Virus record (IMG/VR): IMGVR_UViG_3300025276_003682
Coordinates: 1 to 59,988 of that record
Direction: 5' to 3' (one strand)
Origin: a virus
Taxonomy: Duplodnaviria > Caudoviricetes
DNA: 59,988 nt
The notes under the pieces were generated by a model. That model was given only the letters and a program-made list of their open reading frames with translations, made no database searches and was not told where the DNA came from. The first letter of the stretch is position 1; each line of letters starts with the position of its first letter. Positions 46,301-56,534 of this stretch are shown one piece after another. Both the position numbers and the translations under genes were made by a program.

Positions 46301-46380
46301 GAATTTAATAGTATATTTCTTATATTAAATTAACCGTTAGCCTATACGCGTAATACCTGGCAAATTAAAAAAGAAAAATC

Positions 46381-47172
46381 ATGGCAAAACATGTAGTTGT
46401 AAGTCTTAGTGGGGGAATGGACTCCTCAACATTATTATTAAGAGCATTAAAAGAATACGATACTGTAACTGGTATTTCATTTGACTATGGTCAAAAACAT
46501 AGGGTAGAGTTAGAAAGAGCTCAAGAATTAATTAATTATCTAGCAGATAAAGGTCATAAAGTAAATTATCGCCAAATTAAACTAGACGGATTAGTAGATT
46601 TACTAGACTCAGCTCTAGTAGAAGGTGGAAATGATGTACCAGAAGGACATTACGAAAATGAAAATATGAAAGATACTGTCGTACCTAATAGGAATAAAAT
46701 ATTTGCTTCTATTGTACAAGCTGTAGCATTATCAATAGCAAATAGAGAAGAAGAAACTTGTGATATTGCTTTAGGTATTCATGCTGGTGATCATGCTGTT
46801 TATCCTGATTGTAGACAAGAATTTAGAGATGCAGATGATAAAGCATTTAGAGAAGGTAATTGGGAGGCTGATAGAGTAGGGTACTTTACACCTTACTTAG
46901 ATACAGATAAATTTGGAATCTTACAAGATGGAGAACGATTGGTTAAAAAGTTGGGTCTTAGTTTCGATGAAGTATACAAAAGAACAAATACTTCTTATAA
47001 GCCTTATCCTTCAGGAAATAGTGATTATAAGTCTGCTTCTAGTGTTGAGAGGATTGAGGCTTTTATTGCCCTTGGCCGAAAAGATCCCGTACAGTATGAG
47101 GATGAAACTGGAGAAGTGGATTACGAAGTAGCGAGAAAACACGTTGAGAACGTTTTATCTGCATATTTATAA
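46381..47172 (+). CDS. queC: 7-cyano-7-deazaguanine (preQ0) synthase
   Basis: SLSGGMDS, FDYGQKH..EL, VVPNRN and HAGDHAVYPDCR. Confidence 0.95.
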   Translation: MAKHVVVSLSGGMDSSTLLLRALKEYDTVTGISFDYGQKHRVELERAQELINYLADKGHKVNYRQIKLDGLVDLLDSALVEGGNDVPEGHYENENMKDTVVPNRNKIFASIVQAVALSIANREEETCDIALGIHAGDHAVYPDCRQEFRDADDKAFREGNWEADRVGYFTPYLDTDKFGILQDGERLVKKLGLSFDEVYKRTNTSYKPYPSGNSDYKSASSVERIEAFIALGRKDPVQYEDETGEVDYEVARKHVENVLSAYL

Positions 47173-47959: not shown

Positions 47960-48547
47960 ATGAAAAAGAGTACAAAACACCTTATAATAGTAGGCCACCC
48001 TGATCAGAAATCTTTCTGCTATAGTGGCATATACAAAACCATTATTAGACAGATGAATAAGTATAACTCGGAATATAGAGTTATCGACTTGTATGAAGAT
48101 AAATTACATAGAGATAAAAAAGACCTGATAAAAAACTATAAGAAGTTAGTTACTTGGTCAACCCATATGTACTTTGTTTCACCAGTATGGTGGTTCAGGT
48201 TAACACCTAAGTTAGAAATGTTTTTTGACGAAGTATTCACACCTGGATTTGCATATAAATTTGTACCAATAGTAGGAAAGTATGCATACCCAAAACCATT
48301 CTTCAGTAATAAGAAAGTAAGGACGTATATTACACACGGAGCTCCAAAATTACCAGTTATAACACTGTATTTAAACTCTGTAAAGTTAAGACTAGTTATG
48401 GGAGTGTATACATTCGTATTTGGCTGGAACTTAAACAGATGGACTAAGACAAAACAATTCTGGTCAGTACCATTTGTATCAAAAGAAAAACGTAGAAAAT
48501 ACTTAAGAATAGTAAAAGAAGATATTAGAAAAGATTTAGGACTATGA
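47960..48547 (+). CDS. Flavodoxin-fold NAD(P)H-dependent oxidoreductase
   Basis: IIVGHPDQKSF, IDLY and SPVWWF..TP.L..FFDEVFTPGFAY. Confidence 0.85.
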   Translation: MKKSTKHLIIVGHPDQKSFCYSGIYKTIIRQMNKYNSEYRVIDLYEDKLHRDKKDLIKNYKKLVTWSTHMYFVSPVWWFRLTPKLEMFFDEVFTPGFAYKFVPIVGKYAYPKPFFSNKKVRTYITHGAPKLPVITLYLNSVKLRLVMGVYTFVFGWNLNRWTKTKQFWSVPFVSKEKRRKYLRIVKEDIRKDLGL

Positions 48548-48816
48548 AAAAAGTAAAAACTAGCTACTGGAATAACTACTTAAGGAAGATGGTTAGAGAT
48601 AGGAGACTAACACCAGCCGAACGTTTAGGTACAAGAATAGGCTATATGGGAGTAGGATTTTTAATAGCAGGTCAATGGACACTTAACCCAGCTATGTATG
48701 TAATAGGTTTTGGATGTGTCTTAATACAGGTAGCAATTCGTAGACAGTGGAACTTAGTAGCACTACAGTTAAACGGATTAATTGCCTGGACGATACATTT
48801 TATAAATTCGTTATAA
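48544..48816 (+). CDS. Small membrane protein (about 3 TM)
   Basis: Basic N-terminus followed by hydrophobic segments. ATGA overlap with the upstream gene. Confidence 0.6.
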   Translation: MKKVKTSYWNNYLRKMVRDRRLTPAERLGTRIGYMGVGFLIAGQWTLNPAMYVIGFGCVLIQVAIRRQWNLVALQLNGLIAWTIHFINSL

Positions 48817-48880
48817 AAAAAACGTATATTTAGTTGGAGATAAGAAATATTCTGACTATATTATACTATAGGTAATAATT

Positions 48881-48908
48881 AGTGTCGTAGCACCACTTTA
48901 AAAACACA
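48881..48908 (+). ncRNA. preQ1-I riboswitch-like aptamer in the leader of the queD/queE operon
   Basis: AGUG-UCGUAG-CAC-CACU-UUAAAAA-CACA: 4-bp P1 closed by G-C, UCGYAG loop, C before the 3' strand, A-rich tail then C. Lies between a promoter (TATATT at 48857) and the ATG at 48912. Confidence 0.7.
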
Positions 48909-48911
48909 CGT

Positions 48912-49136
48912 ATGCAAGAAGAAATACAAAAAGAGTTATGGAATAGAGAAATTAGAAACTCTATAAAAATCGACGGACAGAAGATACCTGATCCGAAATT
49001 ACATCAAAGAATATCTTTTATTAAATCAGCTATAAGAATGGGAGCATGTGCTTTGGGATTCTTTGGTATGTTTGAAGTTGGATTTATTGGACTATTTTTA
49101 GCAGAAATAGTTGGAATTGGTGAAGAATTAGTTTAA
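48912..49136 (+). CDS. Small membrane protein (74 aa), first gene of the queD/queE operon
   Basis: C-terminal hydrophobic hairpin (ISFIKSAIRMGAC...LAEIVGIGEELV). Confidence 0.65.
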   Translation: MQEEIQKELWNREIRNSIKIDGQKIPDPKLHQRISFIKSAIRMGACALGFFGMFEVGFIGLFLAEIVGIGEELV

Positions 49137-49145
49137 ATTATAATT

Positions 49146-49610
49146 ATGGGAAAATACCAATCAACAAAAGTATTTGACGGATACTCTACTGTATTTCGTC
49201 AATGGAAAGCAACAACTACACATTGTTCTAAACTACACGGATACGGTGTATCGTTTAAGATATGGTTTGAAGGAGAATTAGATGAAAGAAATTGGGTCTG
49301 GGATTTCGGAGGAATGAAAAGAGCTAAAGGGACTATAGAAAAGATGACACCTAAGGCATGGATGGATTATATGTTTGATCATACCTTTTTAGTAGCTGAA
49401 GATGATCCGTTCAAAGAATCTTTTATGCAAATGGACTTAGCAAAAGTAGCCCAAGTAAGAGTAGTTCCGGCAACAGGAGCAGAGAGCTTTGCTAAATTTA
49501 TTTACGAAAGTATAAATCCATTTATTGAATCAGAAACTGACGGAAGAGTTAAGATAGTTAAAGTAGAATTTAGAGAACACGCTAAAAACAGTGCAATTTA
49601 TGTCGCATAA
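49146..49610 (+). CDS. queD: 6-carboxy-5,6,7,8-tetrahydropterin synthase
   Basis: RQW...THCSKLHGY, WVWDFGG, FDHTFL, GAESFA and EFREHAKNSAIY. Confidence 0.9.
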   Translation: MGKYQSTKVFDGYSTVFRQWKATTTHCSKLHGYGVSFKIWFEGELDERNWVWDFGGMKRAKGTIEKMTPKAWMDYMFDHTFLVAEDDPFKESFMQMDLAKVAQVRVVPATGAESFAKFIYESINPFIESETDGRVKIVKVEFREHAKNSAIYVA

Positions 49611-50388
49611 ACAGTTAAAAAGGGTAGAAGACTACGATAAGAATTTACCTATTGTAGAAATATATACAGCAGTGCAGTCTGAAGGTTCAAGAGCAGGGTA
49701 TCCTACAGTGGTAATTAGAACAACAGGATGTACACACAGATGCTACTTCGGTGAAGGAGGATGGTGTGATAGTTGGTATACAAGTATTCATCCGGAAAAG
49801 GGACATTTTAATTTCAAAGATATTATTAAGGCATATGAAGATAATCCTCATATTAAGGAAATGATGTTGACTGGCGGTTCACCAACAATGCATCCAGCCT
49901 TAGTAAACGAACTAACACACTTTGCACATGAAAACAATATATTCATTACTATTGAAACTGAGGGATCTCATTTTCTGCCTACCGATTATCCTATTAATTT
50001 GCTTAGCATTAGTCCTAAGTTTAGTAATAGTGTCCCCGTTGTTGGTGTTGAAACTCCTCAAGGAGCCATTACCGACGAAAGAATGGTAAAACGTCATAAT
50101 AAGTTTAGACTTAATTATGATGCAATAAAACAATCAATTACTTACCATTCTGACTACCATATTAAACCTGTATGGGACGGTAAAGATGAGGGAGCATTAT
50201 CCGAGATTATGGAATGTATTAGTATCTTAGAAGTACCTCAACATAAAGTTTGGTTTATGCCTGCTGGAGATTCTAGAGAAGCACTATTTAAATCTTACCC
50301 CGTATTATTTGATTGGGTTAGAGATAATGGTTATAGAATGACTTGGAGACCGCACATTATTGCTTTCGAAGATCAACGTGAAGTATAG
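49591..50388 (+). CDS. queE: 7-carboxy-7-deazaguanine synthase (radical SAM)
   Basis: EIY..VQSEG...G.P...IRT.GC...C.......CDS, LTGGSP, ITIETEG and SISPK. The start may be the ATG at 49600. Confidence 0.92.
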   Translation: MQFMSHKQLKRVEDYDKNLPIVEIYTAVQSEGSRAGYPTVVIRTTGCTHRCYFGEGGWCDSWYTSIHPEKGHFNFKDIIKAYEDNPHIKEMMLTGGSPTMHPALVNELTHFAHENNIFITIETEGSHFLPTDYPINLLSISPKFSNSVPVVGVETPQGAITDERMVKRHNKFRLNYDAIKQSITYHSDYHIKPVWDGKDEGALSEIMECISILEVPQHKVWFMPAGDSREALFKSYPVLFDWVRDNGYRMTWRPHIIAFEDQREV

Positions 50389-50522
50389 TGGATAAAAAAG
50401 AGGCATTAGAAATATTAGAAACTATAGCAGAAAACATTAATACATGTTGTGCAATTACTATGGAACCAGATGACGTTTTGGTACTATGTGATAAACTAAA
50501 AATATATATAGAGAATGATTAA
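50388..50522 (+). CDS. Small hypothetical protein (44 aa, GTG start; not in the ORF track)
   Basis: MDKKEALEILETIAENINTCCAITMEPDD...END*. It overlaps both neighbouring genes. Confidence 0.5.
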   Translation: MDKKEALEILETIAENINTCCAITMEPDDVLVLCDKLKIYIEND

Positions 50523-50814
50523 CTTAAAAGAATTAATAGAATCAGCAGGTCCGGATAGACTTGACCACACGGTTACTATAGAAGGAAGCCCAGTTTGGGA
50601 CTATAAAATGGGAGGTGTACATACTGTATTTCTCATATCTGAAGACCCTTGGGAGGGTGTAGAAGAAGAGTACGTAACTTTAAGAGAACTGAGAAAGTAC
50701 ATAGTAGACAGCTTCATACCTTTCGATTCAGTAAAATTTAAAACAGAAGCAGATAGAGAATTAATTAAAAGTTTCAAATGGGAAGAAAAGCAATTAGTAT
50801 TATCACATTACTAG
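50515..50814 (+). CDS. Hypothetical protein (99 aa)
   Basis: Clean ORF in the operon. Confidence 0.6.
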   Translation: MINLKELIESAGPDRLDHTVTIEGSPVWDYKMGGVHTVFLISEDPWEGVEEEYVTLRELRKYIVDSFIPFDSVKFKTEADRELIKSFKWEEKQLVLSHY

Positions 50815-51359
50815 TATTATTACCTTTTGCAGGTGTTAGTCAAGTAATAGAAGTAGAAACAAAGATATACAAGGTACTGTACGATCAAGATTTAAAACAA
50901 CCTCTTGAAGTTAGGTACACAGTACAGTGTCCTAAAGGAGATGCTGACAGAGCAGGAATGGATTTTAGAACCGTTCCTAATGTGATCACATCTAGACCAG
51001 AAGACTACTCTAACAATGTATGGGATAAAGGTCATCTTGCTCCTGCAGCAGCATTTAGTTGTACTAAGGAGATGTTAAGAGAAACGTTTCTATACTTTAA
51101 CTGTGCTCTTCAACATGAAAGTTTAAATAGAGGAGTATGGAATAGGTTAGAACAATTCGAAAGAAGTCTAGCTAACTTCTATCAAGTCGAAGTAGTAATA
51201 GAGGTAATATTTGACGACAAGGTCAGAAGAGTTCCTACAGGAGCAGCAATACCTAAAGAATTTACAAAGACTATAAAGTTTGGTGATAAGAATTTAAAAT
51301 TTAGGTTCCCAAACACCAATACATCAGGAACGAATTGGATTGACTACTTAATAGACTAA
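50778..51359 (+). CDS. DNA/RNA non-specific endonuclease (NucA/EndoG-like) with signal peptide
   Basis: N-terminal signal (RKAISIITLLVLLPFAGVSQ), WDKGHLAPAA and N.ALQ...LNRGVW..LE..ER. Confidence 0.85.
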   Translation: MGRKAISIITLLVLLPFAGVSQVIEVETKIYKVLYDQDLKQPLEVRYTVQCPKGDADRAGMDFRTVPNVITSRPEDYSNNVWDKGHLAPAAAFSCTKEMLRETFLYFNCALQHESLNRGVWNRLEQFERSLANFYQVEVVIEVIFDDKVRRVPTGAAIPKEFTKTIKFGDKNLKFRFPNTNTSGTNWIDYLID

Positions 51360-51362
51360 AAA

Positions 51363-51533
51363 ATGACAGAGAAAGAATTTATTGACTGGTTAAGAGGATA
51401 CGTAGACGGAGTACATACCTACTCAGTATCACCCAAGCAGTGGCAGTACTTAAAAGATAAAGTTAAAAGTATATCTACAGGATCTACTAGGTATACTATT
51501 GATAGTGATAAGTGGACAACTAACATAGCATAA
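51363..51533 (+). CDS. Small hypothetical protein (56 aa; not in the ORF track)
   Basis: MTEKEFIDWLRGYVDG...TNIA*, exactly filling the gap between genes. Confidence 0.6.
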   Translation: MTEKEFIDWLRGYVDGVHTYSVSPKQWQYLKDKVKSISTGSTRYTIDSDKWTTNIA

Positions 51534-51535
51534 CA

Positions 51536-51940
51536 ATGGAACCAAAGAAAATTTATATTACCTGGGATGAGGTTAACGAATTACTGGATAGAGTATATGA
51601 TCAATGTAAAGAAGATATATCATTAGTAACAGGTGTACCGAGAGGAGGTACAATATTAGCAATACTATTTTCACATAGATTTGATATACAATATACTCCT
51701 TATATGAGTAATCATTACCCCAATATGCTTATACTAGATGATATAGCAGATTCAGGAAAAACATTCAAAGACTTAGAACAAGACTTTCCTAAACCTAAAT
51801 ACGGAGCATTACATTACAAAATCACTTCGGTATTTGAACCAGACTATTACGCAAAGGAAATAGATAAAGACTTTGGATGGATAGTATACCCTTGGGAGAA
51901 AAAAGATTCAAATACTATTCAAAATTATTTGGAGAATTAA
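51536..51940 (+). CDS. Type I purine phosphoribosyltransferase (Gpt-like)
   Basis: ITW, GVPRGG, LILDDIADSGKT PRPP loop and WIVYPWE. Confidence 0.88.
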   Translation: MEPKKIYITWDEVNELLDRVYDQCKEDISLVTGVPRGGTILAILFSHRFDIQYTPYMSNHYPNMLILDDIADSGKTFKDLEQDFPKPKYGALHYKITSVFEPDYYAKEIDKDFGWIVYPWEKKDSNTIQNYLEN

Positions 51941-51970
51941 AATAAATTGCTTATATTATTATTATATTAA

Positions 51971-51998
51971 TGAGTCGTAGAACCTCAAAAAAAACAAT
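51971..51998 (+). ncRNA. preQ1-I riboswitch-like aptamer in the folE leader
   Basis: UGAG-UCGUAG-AAC-CUCA-AAAAAAA-CAAU: same architecture as 48881..48908 with a different, compensated stem. Lies between a promoter (TATATT at 51952) and the folE ATG at 52007. Confidence 0.7.
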
Positions 51999-52006
51999 TA
52001 AAATTT

Positions 52007-52720
52007 ATGCCTAAAAAGTTTATAGACGGAACAGAATTAGTAAAAGCAGGATATGCAAACGGTATATCAAGTCAATTAGCAGAGAAGCAAAAAGCAGAAG
52101 GACCTGAAGCTAGATTAACTGAACATGAGAAACAAGTAATTATAGAAAGAGCAGCAAATGCTTATGCAGATTTTCTAACTGCATTAGGATGTAACTATAA
52201 AGACGATCCTAATTCATCTGAGACCCCTCATAGAGTAGCAAAAGCATACGTTAATGATTTATGGGCAGGAAGGTATAACCCTTTAGACCGTATTACAGCA
52301 TTTCCTTCAGACGGATATGACGGTATTGTACAGGAGAGTAATATACCAGTAACGTCTATGTGTTCTCACCATCATCAAGCTATTAGAGGTACAGTAAGTA
52401 TTGCTTATATTGCTTCGGAAGATGGAAAGGTAGTTGGACTATCTAAGCTAAATAGAATAGTAGAGCAATTCGGAAGAAGAGGAGCTATTCAGGAACAACT
52501 TACTGTGGCTATACATAATGCAGTAAATAAGATATGTGAAGGTAATTTAGGAGTTGCAGTACAAGTTAATGCTACTCATGCATGTGTATCCTGTAGAGGA
52601 GTTAAACACGGTGGTGCCTCAATGCAAACAGCAAAACTAACCGGAGCATTTTTACACGAAGATTCTGCAAAAGCAGAATTTTATAAGAATATAGAATTAG
52701 CTTCAATTTGTAAACATTAA
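52007..52720 (+). CDS. folE: GTP cyclohydrolase I
   Basis: ETPHRVAK, SMCSHH, VVGLSKLNRIV, IQEQLT and HACVSCRGV. Confidence 0.95.
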   Translation: MPKKFIDGTELVKAGYANGISSQLAEKQKAEGPEARLTEHEKQVIIERAANAYADFLTALGCNYKDDPNSSETPHRVAKAYVNDLWAGRYNPLDRITAFPSDGYDGIVQESNIPVTSMCSHHHQAIRGTVSIAYIASEDGKVVGLSKLNRIVEQFGRRGAIQEQLTVAIHNAVNKICEGNLGVAVQVNATHACVSCRGVKHGGASMQTAKLTGAFLHEDSAKAEFYKNIELASICKH

Positions 52721-53248: not shown

Positions 53249-53434
53249 ATGATTGATTTAACTAAACATAAGATATATGTAGATAGTCATAAAATGGAAA
53301 TGGTGCCTCTATCTATAGCAATTAAAGCAGTTAAAGAAGCAAGTACTCCGGAAGTAGAAAAGTATGCAGAGGAGTTTGAAAAAGCAATGGCAGAATTACG
53401 TAACTCAATAAACGACATAAAATTAGATGATTAA
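53249..53434 (+). CDS. Hypothetical protein (61 aa)
   Basis: Tightly packed ORF in the operon. Confidence 0.6.
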   Translation: MIDLTKHKIYVDSHKMEMVPLSIAIKAVKEASTPEVEKYAEEFEKAMAELRNSINDIKLDD

Positions 53435-54227
53435 AATAGCTCATGAAAGTCCTAAAAGTATTTTTAACGATGTACAACAGTATACAGATTATGATTACGC
53501 ATTAGTACATTTATTAGAAGAAGATGAAGAGTACTTAAACCAGTTTAAAGAAGCAGTCAAAAAAGGTAGGGAAGTTATATTAGATAATTCTATTTTTGAA
53601 TTAGAAGAAGCTTTTGATGCTGATAAATTTGCTTACTGGATTAATGAGCTAAGACCAACTTGGTATATAGTACCTGATGCATTAGAAGATACTAAGAAAA
53701 CTATGAGTCAGATGGCTAGCTGGAATATGCACTATTCAAAATCAGTATACGGTAAAAAGATAGGAGTAGTTCAAGGTAAGACATACAAGCAGATAGCAGC
53801 ATGTTACGAATATATGGATAAAATTGCTAATGTAGACATGGTCGCAATATCTTTTGACTATTCGTATTATACCGATTCTATACCTCATCCTAACAAGTAT
53901 GTTAGCTGGATGCTAGGACGTATTAAGCTACTTGGAGATTTAGTAAGAGACGGTATAATAAATGAAGATAAACCTCATCACCTACTAGGTTGTGGACTAC
54001 CTCAAGAGTTTTCTTACTATTCTCAATACCCTTGGATTTACTCCTTAGATACTAGTAACCCTGTCGTGCATGGCATTAAAGGTATACCATACGGTTCAGA
54101 TGGATTATTCTCAAAAGAAAGACAAAAGCTTCATGAACTCATTAATTTTGAAGTAGAAGATACGAATTTAATTCTAAATAATATTCATAAATTTAAATGG
54201 CTTACAAATGGAAAGAGAGCAGTATAA
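53427..54227 (+). CDS. dpdA: TGT-fold transglycosylase-like protein, divergent DpdA (probably DpdA3-type)
   Basis: TGT-like motif order ILDNSIFE, IVPD, GVVQG, HHLLG, SLDTS, inside the deazaguanine cluster. Confidence 0.72.
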   Translation: MIKIAHESPKSIFNDVQQYTDYDYALVHLLEEDEEYLNQFKEAVKKGREVILDNSIFELEEAFDADKFAYWINELRPTWYIVPDALEDTKKTMSQMASWNMHYSKSVYGKKIGVVQGKTYKQIAACYEYMDKIANVDMVAISFDYSYYTDSIPHPNKYVSWMLGRIKLLGDLVRDGIINEDKPHHLLGCGLPQEFSYYSQYPWIYSLDTSNPVVHGIKGIPYGSDGLFSKERQKLHELINFEVEDTNLILNNIHKFKWLTNGKRAV

Positions 54228-54399
54228 GGTAGGAGATAAAGTAAAATTTAATTTTATTGGCCAAGTAGAAGTCGGGGTTATAGAAACAATAAGCGAAGGT
54301 TATGTGAACTTCTCTAGCTATAATACTAAATACAGCATCAGATGTGGAGCACATTTATATCCAATCTCTTATGAAGGTATAGAACAAATAGTAAAATGA
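54208..54399 (+). CDS. Hypothetical protein (63 aa, SH3/KOW-like)
   Basis: YKVGDKVKF...G.I pattern. Confidence 0.55.
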   Translation: MEREQYKVGDKVKFNFIGQVEVGVIETISEGYVNFSSYNTKYSIRCGAHLYPISYEGIEQIVK

Positions 54400-54938
54400 G
54401 AAAACCCTGGATAGCATTTTTCAGTCAGACCGGTTCCGAAATAGTAGATATAGCTAATGCAATAGGCTATTGGCCTGATGCTATAATAACTAACGAAAGG
54501 CCTTCAAACATTAGGAAGATAAATAATGACTTACTAGAACAGAACCTACTAGCAACAACAATAAATAAACCCTTAGTAGAGGATTATGAAGAAGTTATAG
54601 GGTTTTATAAGGATCCTGTAATAACACTACACGGATGGTTAAGAATTATGCCTCCTTCTATATGTGAAAAATATAGTATATTTAACGGACATCCAGGACT
54701 TATTACGGAATATCCAGAACTAAAAGGTAAGGATCCACAAATGAAAGCTTTTGAAGGTAAGTACCCGGTGATGGGATGTGTTCTTCATAAGGTAGTTGCA
54801 GGAGTTGATGAAGGAAAAGTTCTAGCAGAAGAGAGATTTAATGCTTTCAATATTACTGAAGAAGAGATGTGGAAGGTAACTAGAGATAGATCTCTATTTC
54901 TTTGGGTAAACTTTCTTAAAAAAGCAGTTGGAAAGTAG
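54396..54938 (+). CDS. dpdN: PurN-like formyltransferase, probable preQ1 formyltransferase (DpdN-like)
   Basis: FSQTGS, LHGWLRIMP, FNGHPGL...YP.LKG.DP and GC..H.V..GVDEG.V. The queF/dpdA context supports the DpdN assignment. Confidence 0.75.
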   Translation: MRKPWIAFFSQTGSEIVDIANAIGYWPDAIITNERPSNIRKINNDLLEQNLLATTINKPLVEDYEEVIGFYKDPVITLHGWLRIMPPSICEKYSIFNGHPGLITEYPELKGKDPQMKAFEGKYPVMGCVLHKVVAGVDEGKVLAEERFNAFNITEEEMWKVTRDRSLFLWVNFLKKAVGK

Positions 54939-55622: not shown

Positions 55623-56534
55623 ATGGCAAACGTTAAGAATTATCAAGAAGTAGTTGAGATTGCTTCTAAGCATTTAGGAAAAGTTGGAGGAGACGGGTAT
55701 AAGGATACATACTCTCCTGAACTGTTAGTAAAAGTACCAAGGTACTTAAATAGAGAAGGTTACGGACTTACGTCTGATAGTTTTGTAGGGGTAGATACTT
55801 GGAACTGTTATGAAGTATCTGCAATTACTACTAAAGGACTTCCGGTAGCAGGTATGTTGAAAATAGTTTGCCCTTCAGATAGTGAATATCACGTAGAATC
55901 TAAATCTATTAAGTTATACTTGAATTCTTTTAATATGACACGGATAGGAGATAATTCTGCAGACTGTATGGCAGTTATAGAAGCAAGAGTAAAGAGGGAT
56001 TTAGATGAGTTACTAGAAACTAATACTACCGTTTCTTTTTATGCCTGTGAAAGCGAAGGAATTCCTATTTCTTTTGAAGGATATTCCGATCTCGGTGCTA
56101 TAGTAGACTTAGATCAAATAGACTTTACAGCTTTCCAGTCAGATGCAAATCAATTAGCAATAGAAGATAGAGTTGATGAGCCTGTAGAGATTAAGTTAAA
56201 ATCTAACTTACTTAGATCTAACTGTAGGGTAACTAACCAGCCAGATTGGGGAGATGTATTTATCAAAATAAAAGGAAGAGACATACCTGCAGCAGATGCA
56301 CTTGCTAAGTATATTGTTAGTCATAGGACCGTTAGTCATTTTCATGAAGAGATTTGTGAAATGGTATTTAAACATCTAATGGATGCTTATAAGCCGGATC
56401 AATTGATGGTATCTTGTTTATATACTAGAAGAGGTGGATTGGATATTAATCCTATAAGAGCAACCCACCAAAGTTTGATACCGGAATTCTTTACAAACAC
56501 AGATTTTAGAATCGCTAAAACCTTAAGACAGTAG
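55623..56534 (+). CDS. queF: NADPH-dependent preQ0 reductase, bimodular type
   Basis: WNCYEVS, VESKSIKLYLNSF, LLRSNCRVTNQPDWG, FHEEICE and YTRRGGLDINP. Confidence 0.95.
   Translation: MANVKNYQEVVEIASKHLGKVGGDGYKDTYSPELLVKVPRYLNREGYGLTSDSFVGVDTWNCYEVSAITTKGLPVAGMLKIVCPSDSEYHVESKSIKLYLNSFNMTRIGDNSADCMAVIEARVKRDLDELLETNTTVSFYACESEGIPISFEGYSDLGAIVDLDQIDFTAFQSDANQLAIEDRVDEPVEIKLKSNLLRSNCRVTNQPDWGDVFIKIKGRDIPAADALAKYIVSHRTVSHFHEEICEMVFKHLMDAYKPDQLMVSCLYTRRGGLDINPIRATHQSLIPEFFTNTDFRIAKTLRQ

Follow-up and report, generated by a model that had tools for sequence, protein, structure and literature searches.

The window analysed here is the whole 59,988-nt stretch of the viral record IMGVR_UViG_3300025276_003682, a single contig whose estimated completeness is 36%. 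With about 75% DNA identity to Flavobacterium phage vB_FspM_immuto (hereafter immuto), and with Cellulophaga phage phiST as more distant kin, it is a fragment of a marine, Flavobacteria-type phage related to immuto. The window encodes the 7-deazaguanine pathway proteins (FolE, QueD, QueE, QueC, QueF), together with DpdA and a DpdN-like formyltransferase. A short element lies in the leader of folE (copy 1) and a second one in the leader of an operon formed by TM74, a small hydrophobic open reading frame (ORF), queD and queE (copy 2). From the letters of this DNA, an earlier reading (the original prediction) had proposed that the two elements are aptamers of a preQ1-I-like kind, one at the head of the folE operon and the other at the head of the membrane-protein/queD/queE operon. 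Their restriction to these two leaders in the window, the recurrence of both sites in related phages, the covariation of the stem and the association with deazaguanine genes support this proposal, and the element is a real, conserved, phage-specific regulatory RNA. The coordinates of all features are collected in Table 1.

A 4-bp stem (P1) with a 9-nt loop, the loop word TCGTAG, an AC in front of the 3′ strand of the stem, a 7-nt A-rich spacer (L3) and the CA after it are common to the two copies. Copy 2 has the sequence that had been described; as delimited in the original prediction it stops at 48908, leaving 3 nt to the ATG at 48912. The comparison with copy 1 could also be reproduced: the loop, the AC before the 3′ strand and all spacings are the same, and the stem changes from UGAG/CUCA to AGUG/CACU. 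The two stems therefore differ at two of four pairs, each being still fully paired, and 16 of the first 26 bases are identical between the copies.

A covariance model built from relatives (R1) and run over the 60-kb window with filters off detects only 48878–48913 (49.8 bits) and 51968–52003 (48.3 bits), the next best score being 13.5 bits. The word TCGTAGNAC occurs four times in the window against 0.89 expected, and the other two occurrences (1544 on the minus strand and 23032 on the plus strand) are without stem or tail. Within the window the motif is restricted to the folE and TM74-queD-queE leaders. The two copies had been considered hard to explain by chance; with these figures a chance origin is excluded. 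A look-alike at 49566 (TTAGAGAAC...TAAAAAC, 49566–49610) was rejected: it lies inside the 3′ end of the queD ORF, is stemless and recurs in relatives, and we read it as coding conservation.

Taken alone, the P1 hairpin is marginal (−1.5 kcal/mol) and folds no better than shuffled sequences, as expected if the element needs a ligand or tertiary contacts. In the AGUG...CAC-CACU form the GUG can also pair with the loop CAC (48882–48893), giving an alternative hairpin of −2.4 kcal/mol that would hide the candidate specificity cytosine. The base at loop position 11 follows the third pair of P1: U3 is accompanied by C11 in 56 sequences and A3 by A11 in 17, while 6 are exceptions. This tracking and the alternative hairpin could reflect a trap in the ligand-free state or shared ancestry.

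Table 1. Features of the two leader elements and of the surrounding genes in the window.
Feature	Position	Strand	Remarks
QueC	46381..47172	+	no motif in front
YKTATATT promoter-like box (CGTATATT)	48823..48830	+	upstream of copy 2; putative promoter
TATATT box nearest copy 2	48857..48862	+	18 nt upstream of P1; forms the second hexamer of the promoter in the original prediction
Copy 2 and leader up to the ATG	48881..48911	+	AGTG TCGTAG CAC CACT TTAAAAA CACACGT; ATG at 48912
Copy 2, P1 5′ strand AGUG	48881..48884	+	pairs with 48894–48897; G48884 is the candidate pocket-floor G
Copy 2, loop UCGUAGCAC	48885..48893	+	U5-C6 corresponds to L1; G7-U8-A9-G10 candidate P2 5′ strand; C11-A12-C13 corresponds to L2
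Copy 2, loop C13	48893	+	candidate specificity cytosine, mapped after the available part of PMC11625349
Copy 2, P1 3′ strand CACU	48894..48897	+	pairs with the 5′ strand
Copy 2, A-rich L3, UUAAAAA	48898..48904	+	keeps its spacing from the hairpin rather than from the start codon
Copy 2, C25-A26	48905..48906	+	C25 is the candidate G10 partner (pocket ceiling), by analogy, no covariation
TM74	48912..49136	+	74-aa small hydrophobic ORF, opens the operon behind copy 2; without Pfam or PHROG family
QueD	49146..49610	+	6-pyruvoyl-tetrahydropterin synthase family; PF01242, E = 3.3e-15
QueE-like radical SAM enzyme	49591..50388	+	overlaps the queD end; PF04055; matches the gene annotated QueE in immuto
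YKTATATT promoter-like box	51950..51957	+	upstream of copy 1
Copy 1, whole (folE leader)	51971..51996	+	TGAG TCGTAG AAC CTCA AAAAAAA CA; ATG at 52007
Copy 1, parts	P1 51971–51974/51984–51987; loop 51975–51983; L3 51988–51994; C25-A26 51995–51996	+	
FolE (GTP cyclohydrolase I)	52007..52720	+	PF01227, E = 3.3e-42
DpdA-type DNA transglycosylase	53427..54227	+	78% identity to the protein annotated DpdA in immuto
DpdN-like formyltransferase	54396..54938	+	PF00551; 53% identity to immuto YP_010114479.1
QueF (preQ0 to preQ1 reductase)	55623..56534	+	PF14819 and PF14489

The conservation of the element was followed in 80 viral loci recovered by a FolE-based search (FolE 70–99% identical), for which the 80 nt before each FolE were listed without selection. 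The motif is seen in most of these 80 upstream regions, with the stems UGAG/CUCA, UGUG/CACA, GGAG/CUCC, AGUG/CACU, GGUG/CACC and UAAG/CUUA. A copy is present in the folE leader of 56 loci and a second copy 2–3 kb upstream in 41; both are found in 33 loci and neither in 16. In immuto (L001, 2822–2997) the folE copy is present and none precedes its queD, while its close uncultured relatives L043, L056 and L058–L061 carry both.

The two window copies had been described as covarying, and P1 indeed covaries across the relatives, with double changes at three of the four pairs. In 42 distinct sequences, a set biased by the requirement of at least three of four P1 pairs, 99.4% of the cells are paired and changes on both sides occur at these three pairs: pair 1 is AU in 19 sequences, UA in 13 and GC in 9, pair 2 is GC in 41 and AU in 1, and pair 3 is UA in 27 and AU in 15, whereas the closing pair is GC in all 42. 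None of 500 shuffles reaches the observed covariation score. A fairer scan of viral contigs used the pattern GTCGTAGMACCWCN{2,5}AAAACA, which leaves bases 1–3 of the 5′ stem strand free, and returned at least 96 matches in 80 loci; among the 96 matches listed, 93 show full stem pairing although the 5′ strand was not specified. Over all loci there are six stem versions, which stay paired through double changes, ten loop versions and 16 combinations of stem and loop. Finally, R1 run over 81 loci (the 80 recovered with FolE and, in addition, the phiST locus L002) gives 98 matches, all on the gene strand and including the loop variant UCACAG.

L3 is 7 nt long in 65 of 79 distinct sequences (range 5–9) and ends in a run of A, while the distance from C25 to the AUG lies anywhere between 2 and 13 nt. 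The near-constant length on one side and the variable gap on the other indicate that the A tract keeps its place relative to the hairpin rather than to the AUG.

Nearly all genes directly downstream of the element code for FolE, FolE2, QueD, QueE or the small membrane protein. Among the 96 matches listed, the first downstream ORF encodes FolE in 43 cases, a TM74 homologue (then QueD/QueE) in 41, QueD in 3 and QueE in 3, so that 90 of the 96 stand directly before FolE, TM74-QueD-QueE, QueD or QueE. The remaining six are unassigned: four are read as cut by the end of the locus, one is a stemless chance match and one precedes FolE2. FolE2 is not homologous to FolE and carries out the same first pathway step. 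In this case (L162, 8336–8942; PF02649, E = 1.6e-25) the motif has the stem AGAG/CUCG, with the outer pair mismatched. The locus is a non-orthologous replacement of FolE by FolE2 in which the leader element was kept; the element therefore follows the pathway step and not the gene lineage.

The control patterns gave the expected outcome. A control pattern with S at stem position 15 gives no matches in the viral scan, and one with a base other than C at position 16 gives 48 matches, none before a que gene. Six of these 48 have four nominal pairs; three sequence types were inspected and none lies in a leader, one being inside a called ORF and the other two (TTTG/CAAA in L220/L223, and L253) having no called ORF on the motif strand. 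The exact pattern occurs 16 times, in 15 contigs, in 185,579 prokaryote species genomes, and full stems are found in only two of the 16 matches. Both of these are on a phage-like 5.9-kb contig (L090), before a TM74-like ORF and FolE; although titled as a Verrucomicrobiales metagenome-assembled genome (MAG), this contig is apparently a piece of phage DNA that ended up in a bacterial MAG during binning. R1 and the Rfam PreQ1 model (RF00522) each found nothing in 151 sampled Bacteroidetes genomes (phylum by record title), which are weak negatives given about 40 candidates scored per genome; the positive controls of these scans, the phage's own record for R1 and B. subtilis for RF00522, were found. 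The presence of the motif also goes with QueF or the formyltransferase in the locus (49 of 56 motif loci against 3 of 14 without the motif), which is weak evidence as the loci are related.

Separately, a look-alike that reads AAGG TCGTAGAAC CWAT and then continues with A-rich sequence recurs in L228 (440–510) and about 20 related viral contigs, where it stands in the leader of a protein of 716 aa without Pfam family. This look-alike has no conserved 4-bp stem and is kept within its lineage, and is probably unrelated.

What the element might bind can be approached through class I preQ1 riboswitches, whose solved structures are compared in a 2024 family review (PMC11625349). According to the available part of this review, the class I aptamer is an H-type pseudoknot in which the minor groove of an A-form P1 receives the A-rich L3 that comes after it. 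The base that pairs with preQ1 is a C just before the P1 3′ strand; it is strictly conserved, and its 5′ neighbour is A in types II and III but U in type I. The floor of the pocket is formed by a conserved G-C pair, the O6 of its G reading the aminomethyl group in all types; and a U of L1 and an adenine of L3 read the edge of the ligand. Type III is described there as having the smallest and most stringent consensus, and variants of conserved pockets can switch ligand.

When these roles are transferred by analogy to the phage element, nearly all fall on its most conserved positions. G4-C14, the putative floor pair, is invariant, as are U5 (L1 uridine), G10 (ceiling pair) and the last A of L3 (ligand edge). 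In 51 distinct sequences the candidate specificity cytosine C13 is conserved in 51/51, the A12 that precedes it in 50/51 and C6, assigned to a ceiling triple, in 48/51; A9 is invariant in the same set. C25, the other partner of the ceiling pair, is invariant by construction of the scan, and A26, which might form a non-canonical pair with A9, is A in 79/79 distinct sequences (50/51 in the smaller set). The invariant positions are those that contact preQ1 in solved class I aptamers, which supports a class I-like interpretation. The label "preQ1-I-like" can thus be retained in the sense that the pocket positions are kept, but the element is not a canonical member of the Rfam family, as detailed below.

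The leaders themselves were examined for signals of expression. The original prediction placed a promoter at 48834–48862. As a sigma-70-like site this is a 9-of-12 match, and the region contains 20 such matches against 17.3 expected from shuffles; its TATATT hexamer, however, belongs to a recurrent feature, an exact TATATT being found 0–23 nt before P1 in 95 of 107 distinct upstream sequences. On the plus strand of the window, 10 of 22 YKTATATT boxes (for instance at 46319, 48823, 51950, 54949 and 57064) fall in the 4.6% of the sequence outside ORFs of at least 60 aa, and the distribution of this box suggests that it is probably a phage promoter element. In four metatranscriptome runs the region is covered by contigs of relatives, from which neither strand nor level nor the start of a transcript can be read; that a 164-nt contig of one run has its first base at 48868 does not count as evidence for transcription starting there. 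A terminator or attenuator mechanism was rejected, no terminator-like sites being present in 48400–52300.

Shine-Dalgarno (SD)-like tetramers are present in only 2 of 52 leaders of the window, against a background of 16%; the leaders are A-rich and G-poor, with the frequency of A peaking at −11 (0.69). Genes without SD are typical of Bacteroidota. Neither copy has an SD between the motif and the AUG.

In the second operon queD begins 9 nt after TM74 and queE overlaps queD. An atlas places TM74 homologues in virus-only hypothetical clusters; in relatives these are 61–107 aa long, hydrophobic and the conserved first cistron of the motif-led queD-queE operon. Bacterial preQ1 riboswitches often precede transporter genes, so TM74 might conceivably take part in handling the base. 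The stretch just before copy 2 (47960–48816) contains a gene of the Flavodoxin_2 family (NAD(P)H dehydrogenase-like) and a hydrophobic ORF of 90 aa, which the closest relatives L003, L008 and L010 also have. As regards the end product, the immuto homologue of the formyltransferase, YP_010114479.1, is named DpdN in the available part of bioRxiv 10.1101/2023.04.13.536721, where the guanine of immuto DNA is described as replaced by fdPreQ1, made by a route via free preQ1 from QueF. The full preQ1 pathway around the motif, and a cultured relative with fdPreQ1 DNA and QueF, speak for preQ1 as the relevant metabolite.

On these grounds we consider it likely that both copies represent a phage-specific, miniaturised form of the preQ1 riboswitch of class I (type II-like), which would shut off translation of folE and queD/queE upon accumulation of preQ1 or preQ0. 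The phage probably senses its modified base in this way and throttles its own synthesis of it. The leader RNA would begin a few bases after the TATATT box, with the aptamer at the 5′ end of the mRNA. The 4-bp P1, closed by the invariant G-C, would present U5 and C6 (L1), G10 and the A12-C13 step from its loop; the seven A-rich bases would lie in the P1 minor groove, and C25 would pair with G10, closing a minimal H-type pseudoknot over the ligand. The latter would be free preQ1 (or preQ0), made by FolE-QueD-QueE-QueC-QueF and put into DNA by DpdA, and its pairing with C13 would lock the knot. Since the knot would end 2–13 nt before the AUG of an mRNA devoid of SD, its folding may bury the unstructured A-rich leader on which host ribosomes are expected to land. 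Both folE and the TM74-queD-queE operon would then be translated less, which would put the first three steps of the pathway under feedback; in the second operon the close spacing and overlap of the genes could spread the effect by translational coupling.

Several observations weigh against this interpretation. A scan of the window with Rfam at gathering level returns no matches. The PreQ1 model, whose gathering score is 39 bits, gives copy 1 only 11.1 bits (E = 7), far below that score, and for copy 2 nothing at E ≤ 10 in scans of 301 nt and 56 nt. The best relative (L037) has PreQ1 as top of 4227 Rfam families, yet with only 14.6 bits (E = 0.48). The pseudoknot stem P2 rests on analogy: G10 and C25 can pair everywhere yet never vary, and in 51 distinct sequences no loop-tail pair beyond them covaries, the next two P2 steps being pairable in 37% and 16% of distinct sequences. 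An extension of P2 through the CGU/ACG complementarity of copy 2 was rejected, as it is not kept in relatives. With no SD to sequester, the known class I expression platform, in which SD nucleotides lie within P2 or a terminator is used, cannot apply. P1 has 4 bp, against 5 in the Tte aptamer as numbered in the available part of the review. Many contigs are close kin, so the counts overstate the number of independent events, and P1 contains no G-U pairs, so that covariation alone cannot separate pairing in RNA from an inverted repeat in DNA. Finally, a conserved loop on a covarying stem would also fit an operator bound by a protein.

This last possibility is the main alternative. The hairpin with its A-rich tail would be a translational operator recognised by a phage repressor or by a self-regulating pathway enzyme, with no small molecule involved, in the manner of the T4 RegA and gp43 operators, which are protein-bound translational operators of phage genes. 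The conserved loop, the short covarying stem and the proximity to the start codon fit such an operator, and so do the sub-significant Rfam PreQ1 scores, the unsupported P2 and the rarity of riboswitches in phages as reported in the available part of a survey (PMC5473149). What it leaves unexplained is why the invariant positions are exactly the class I preQ1 contacts, and why the hairpin should be linked to an A tract of fixed length with CA behind it. In addition, the motif is kept where FolE2 replaces FolE, which makes autoregulation by FolE itself unlikely. Overall, we regard a protein operator as an unlikely explanation.

Less probable still, in our judgement a rather doubtful option, is a class I-like knot specific for another ligand, such as preQ0, CDG, 7-deazaguanine, the formylated preQ1 base or guanine, the pocket being altered by the short L2 and the minimal P2. 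Relative to Tte as described in the accessible part of the review, L2 is one base, L3 two bases and P1 one pair shorter; pocket variants can change ligand according to the same text (PMC11625349); and the end product of immuto-type phages, in the part of the preprint at hand, is fdPreQ1 and not preQ1. Yet the specificity C, the floor G, the U of L1 and the last A of L3 are all kept, and the motif goes with QueF or the formyltransferase, although the related loci make this weak evidence.

If the stem were instead an inverted repeat in DNA, the element would be an operator or a promoter-proximal site for a transcription factor. Its position 0–23 nt after a promoter-like TATATT box and the lack of G-U pairs in the stem agree with this, whereas every one of the 98 R1 matches at the FolE loci has the orientation of the coding strand, and the 9-bp spacer and the A-rich tail, which are asymmetric, are the most conserved parts. 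Moreover, freely changing 4-bp half-sites around a fixed spacer are atypical of dimeric operators, and we hold a DNA-level site to be very improbable. That the copies are functionless leader sequence left from a recent duplication is hardly credible, since the 16 shared bases among the first 26 of the window copies are outweighed by six stem versions that keep pairing, by retention of the motif before FolE down to 70% identity and before FolE2, and by its presence in one contig only (phage-like) among 185,579 prokaryote species genomes, so that covariation and gene association contradict it.

Returning to the preQ1 riboswitch interpretation, its fuller form has, to our mind, about an even chance of being right. 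By analogy with class I, the element would be the smallest natural riboswitch aptamer (about 25–27 nt from the first P1 base to the ceiling C-A) and a phage-only offshoot of this class, with a pseudoknot reduced to one G-C pair plus the ligand. It would control SD-less translation by folding away an A-rich ribosome site, and would be the first riboswitch over phage DNA hypermodification, exerting feedback on the GTP diverted to guanine replacement.

If preQ1 is bound, the element shows how far the class I pocket can shrink. Riboswitches in mRNAs lacking an SD are named as an open challenge in the available part of the family review (PMC11625349), and the element would be a natural test case for such control; it would also place 7-deazaguanine DNA modification under metabolite feedback. 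Riboswitches are reported to be very rare in phages, and the 2017 survey, in the part available, suggested that phages may use undiscovered classes (PMC5473149). Our literature searches found no paper joining riboswitch, DpdA and phage, and nothing on this element under preQ1 riboswitch with phage, Bacteroidetes or bacteriophage, or under phage riboswitch; the word "riboswitch" is absent from the paper describing the fdPreQ1 DNA of immuto (bioRxiv 10.1101/2023.04.13.536721). A direct test of the idea is possible with immuto, in which the folE copy is present and for which a host strain (Flavobacterium sp. LMO8) is given in the sequence record.

Among known systems, the closest to the phage element are the type II aptamers of Tte and B. 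subtilis (RF00522). Both consist of a small hairpin, an A-rich tract and a C able to close an H-type pseudoknot; both, as far as the available part of the review goes, have AC right before the P1 3′ strand, a G-C closing P1 and U then C after the 5′ strand; and both stand near the start codon before genes of 7-deazaguanine biosynthesis. By the Tte residue numbers given in the same part, the phage L2, with 3 nt, has one base fewer and its L3, mostly of 7 nt, two fewer, and the core from the first P1 base to the ceiling C measures 25 nt instead of 30. The phage element further differs from type II in a P2 unsupported beyond one G-C pair, in the lack of an SD, in having been found only in phage contigs and in Rfam scores of 11–15 bits against the gathering score of 39. 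With types I and III it would share the general fold, and it has a corresponding candidate specificity cytosine. In the accessible text, two ligands bind to type I, where UC precedes the P1 3′ strand and UU comes after the 5′ strand, whereas the phage element has AC and UC; type III likewise has UU at the latter place and a full AAGG SD buried in a Watson-Crick P2, whereas the phage element has UC and no SD.

Metabolite-sensing leader RNAs are also known from other phages, namely the c-di-GMP-I riboswitches of C. difficile prophages and the glutamine riboswitches of cyanophages, as reported in the available part of PMC5473149. These are ordinary members of bacterial classes found in few phages, whereas the present element was found only in phage contigs (one phage-like contig among 185,579 species genomes, and none with R1 in 151 sampled Bacteroidetes genomes) and would control the phage's own DNA-base modification pathway. 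The RegA sites and the gp43 operator hairpin of T4 resemble it as short hairpins or A/U-rich sites that overlap the translation initiation region of phage genes. Unlike these operators, the phage element has no known protein partner, and its conserved positions coincide with a small-molecule pocket.

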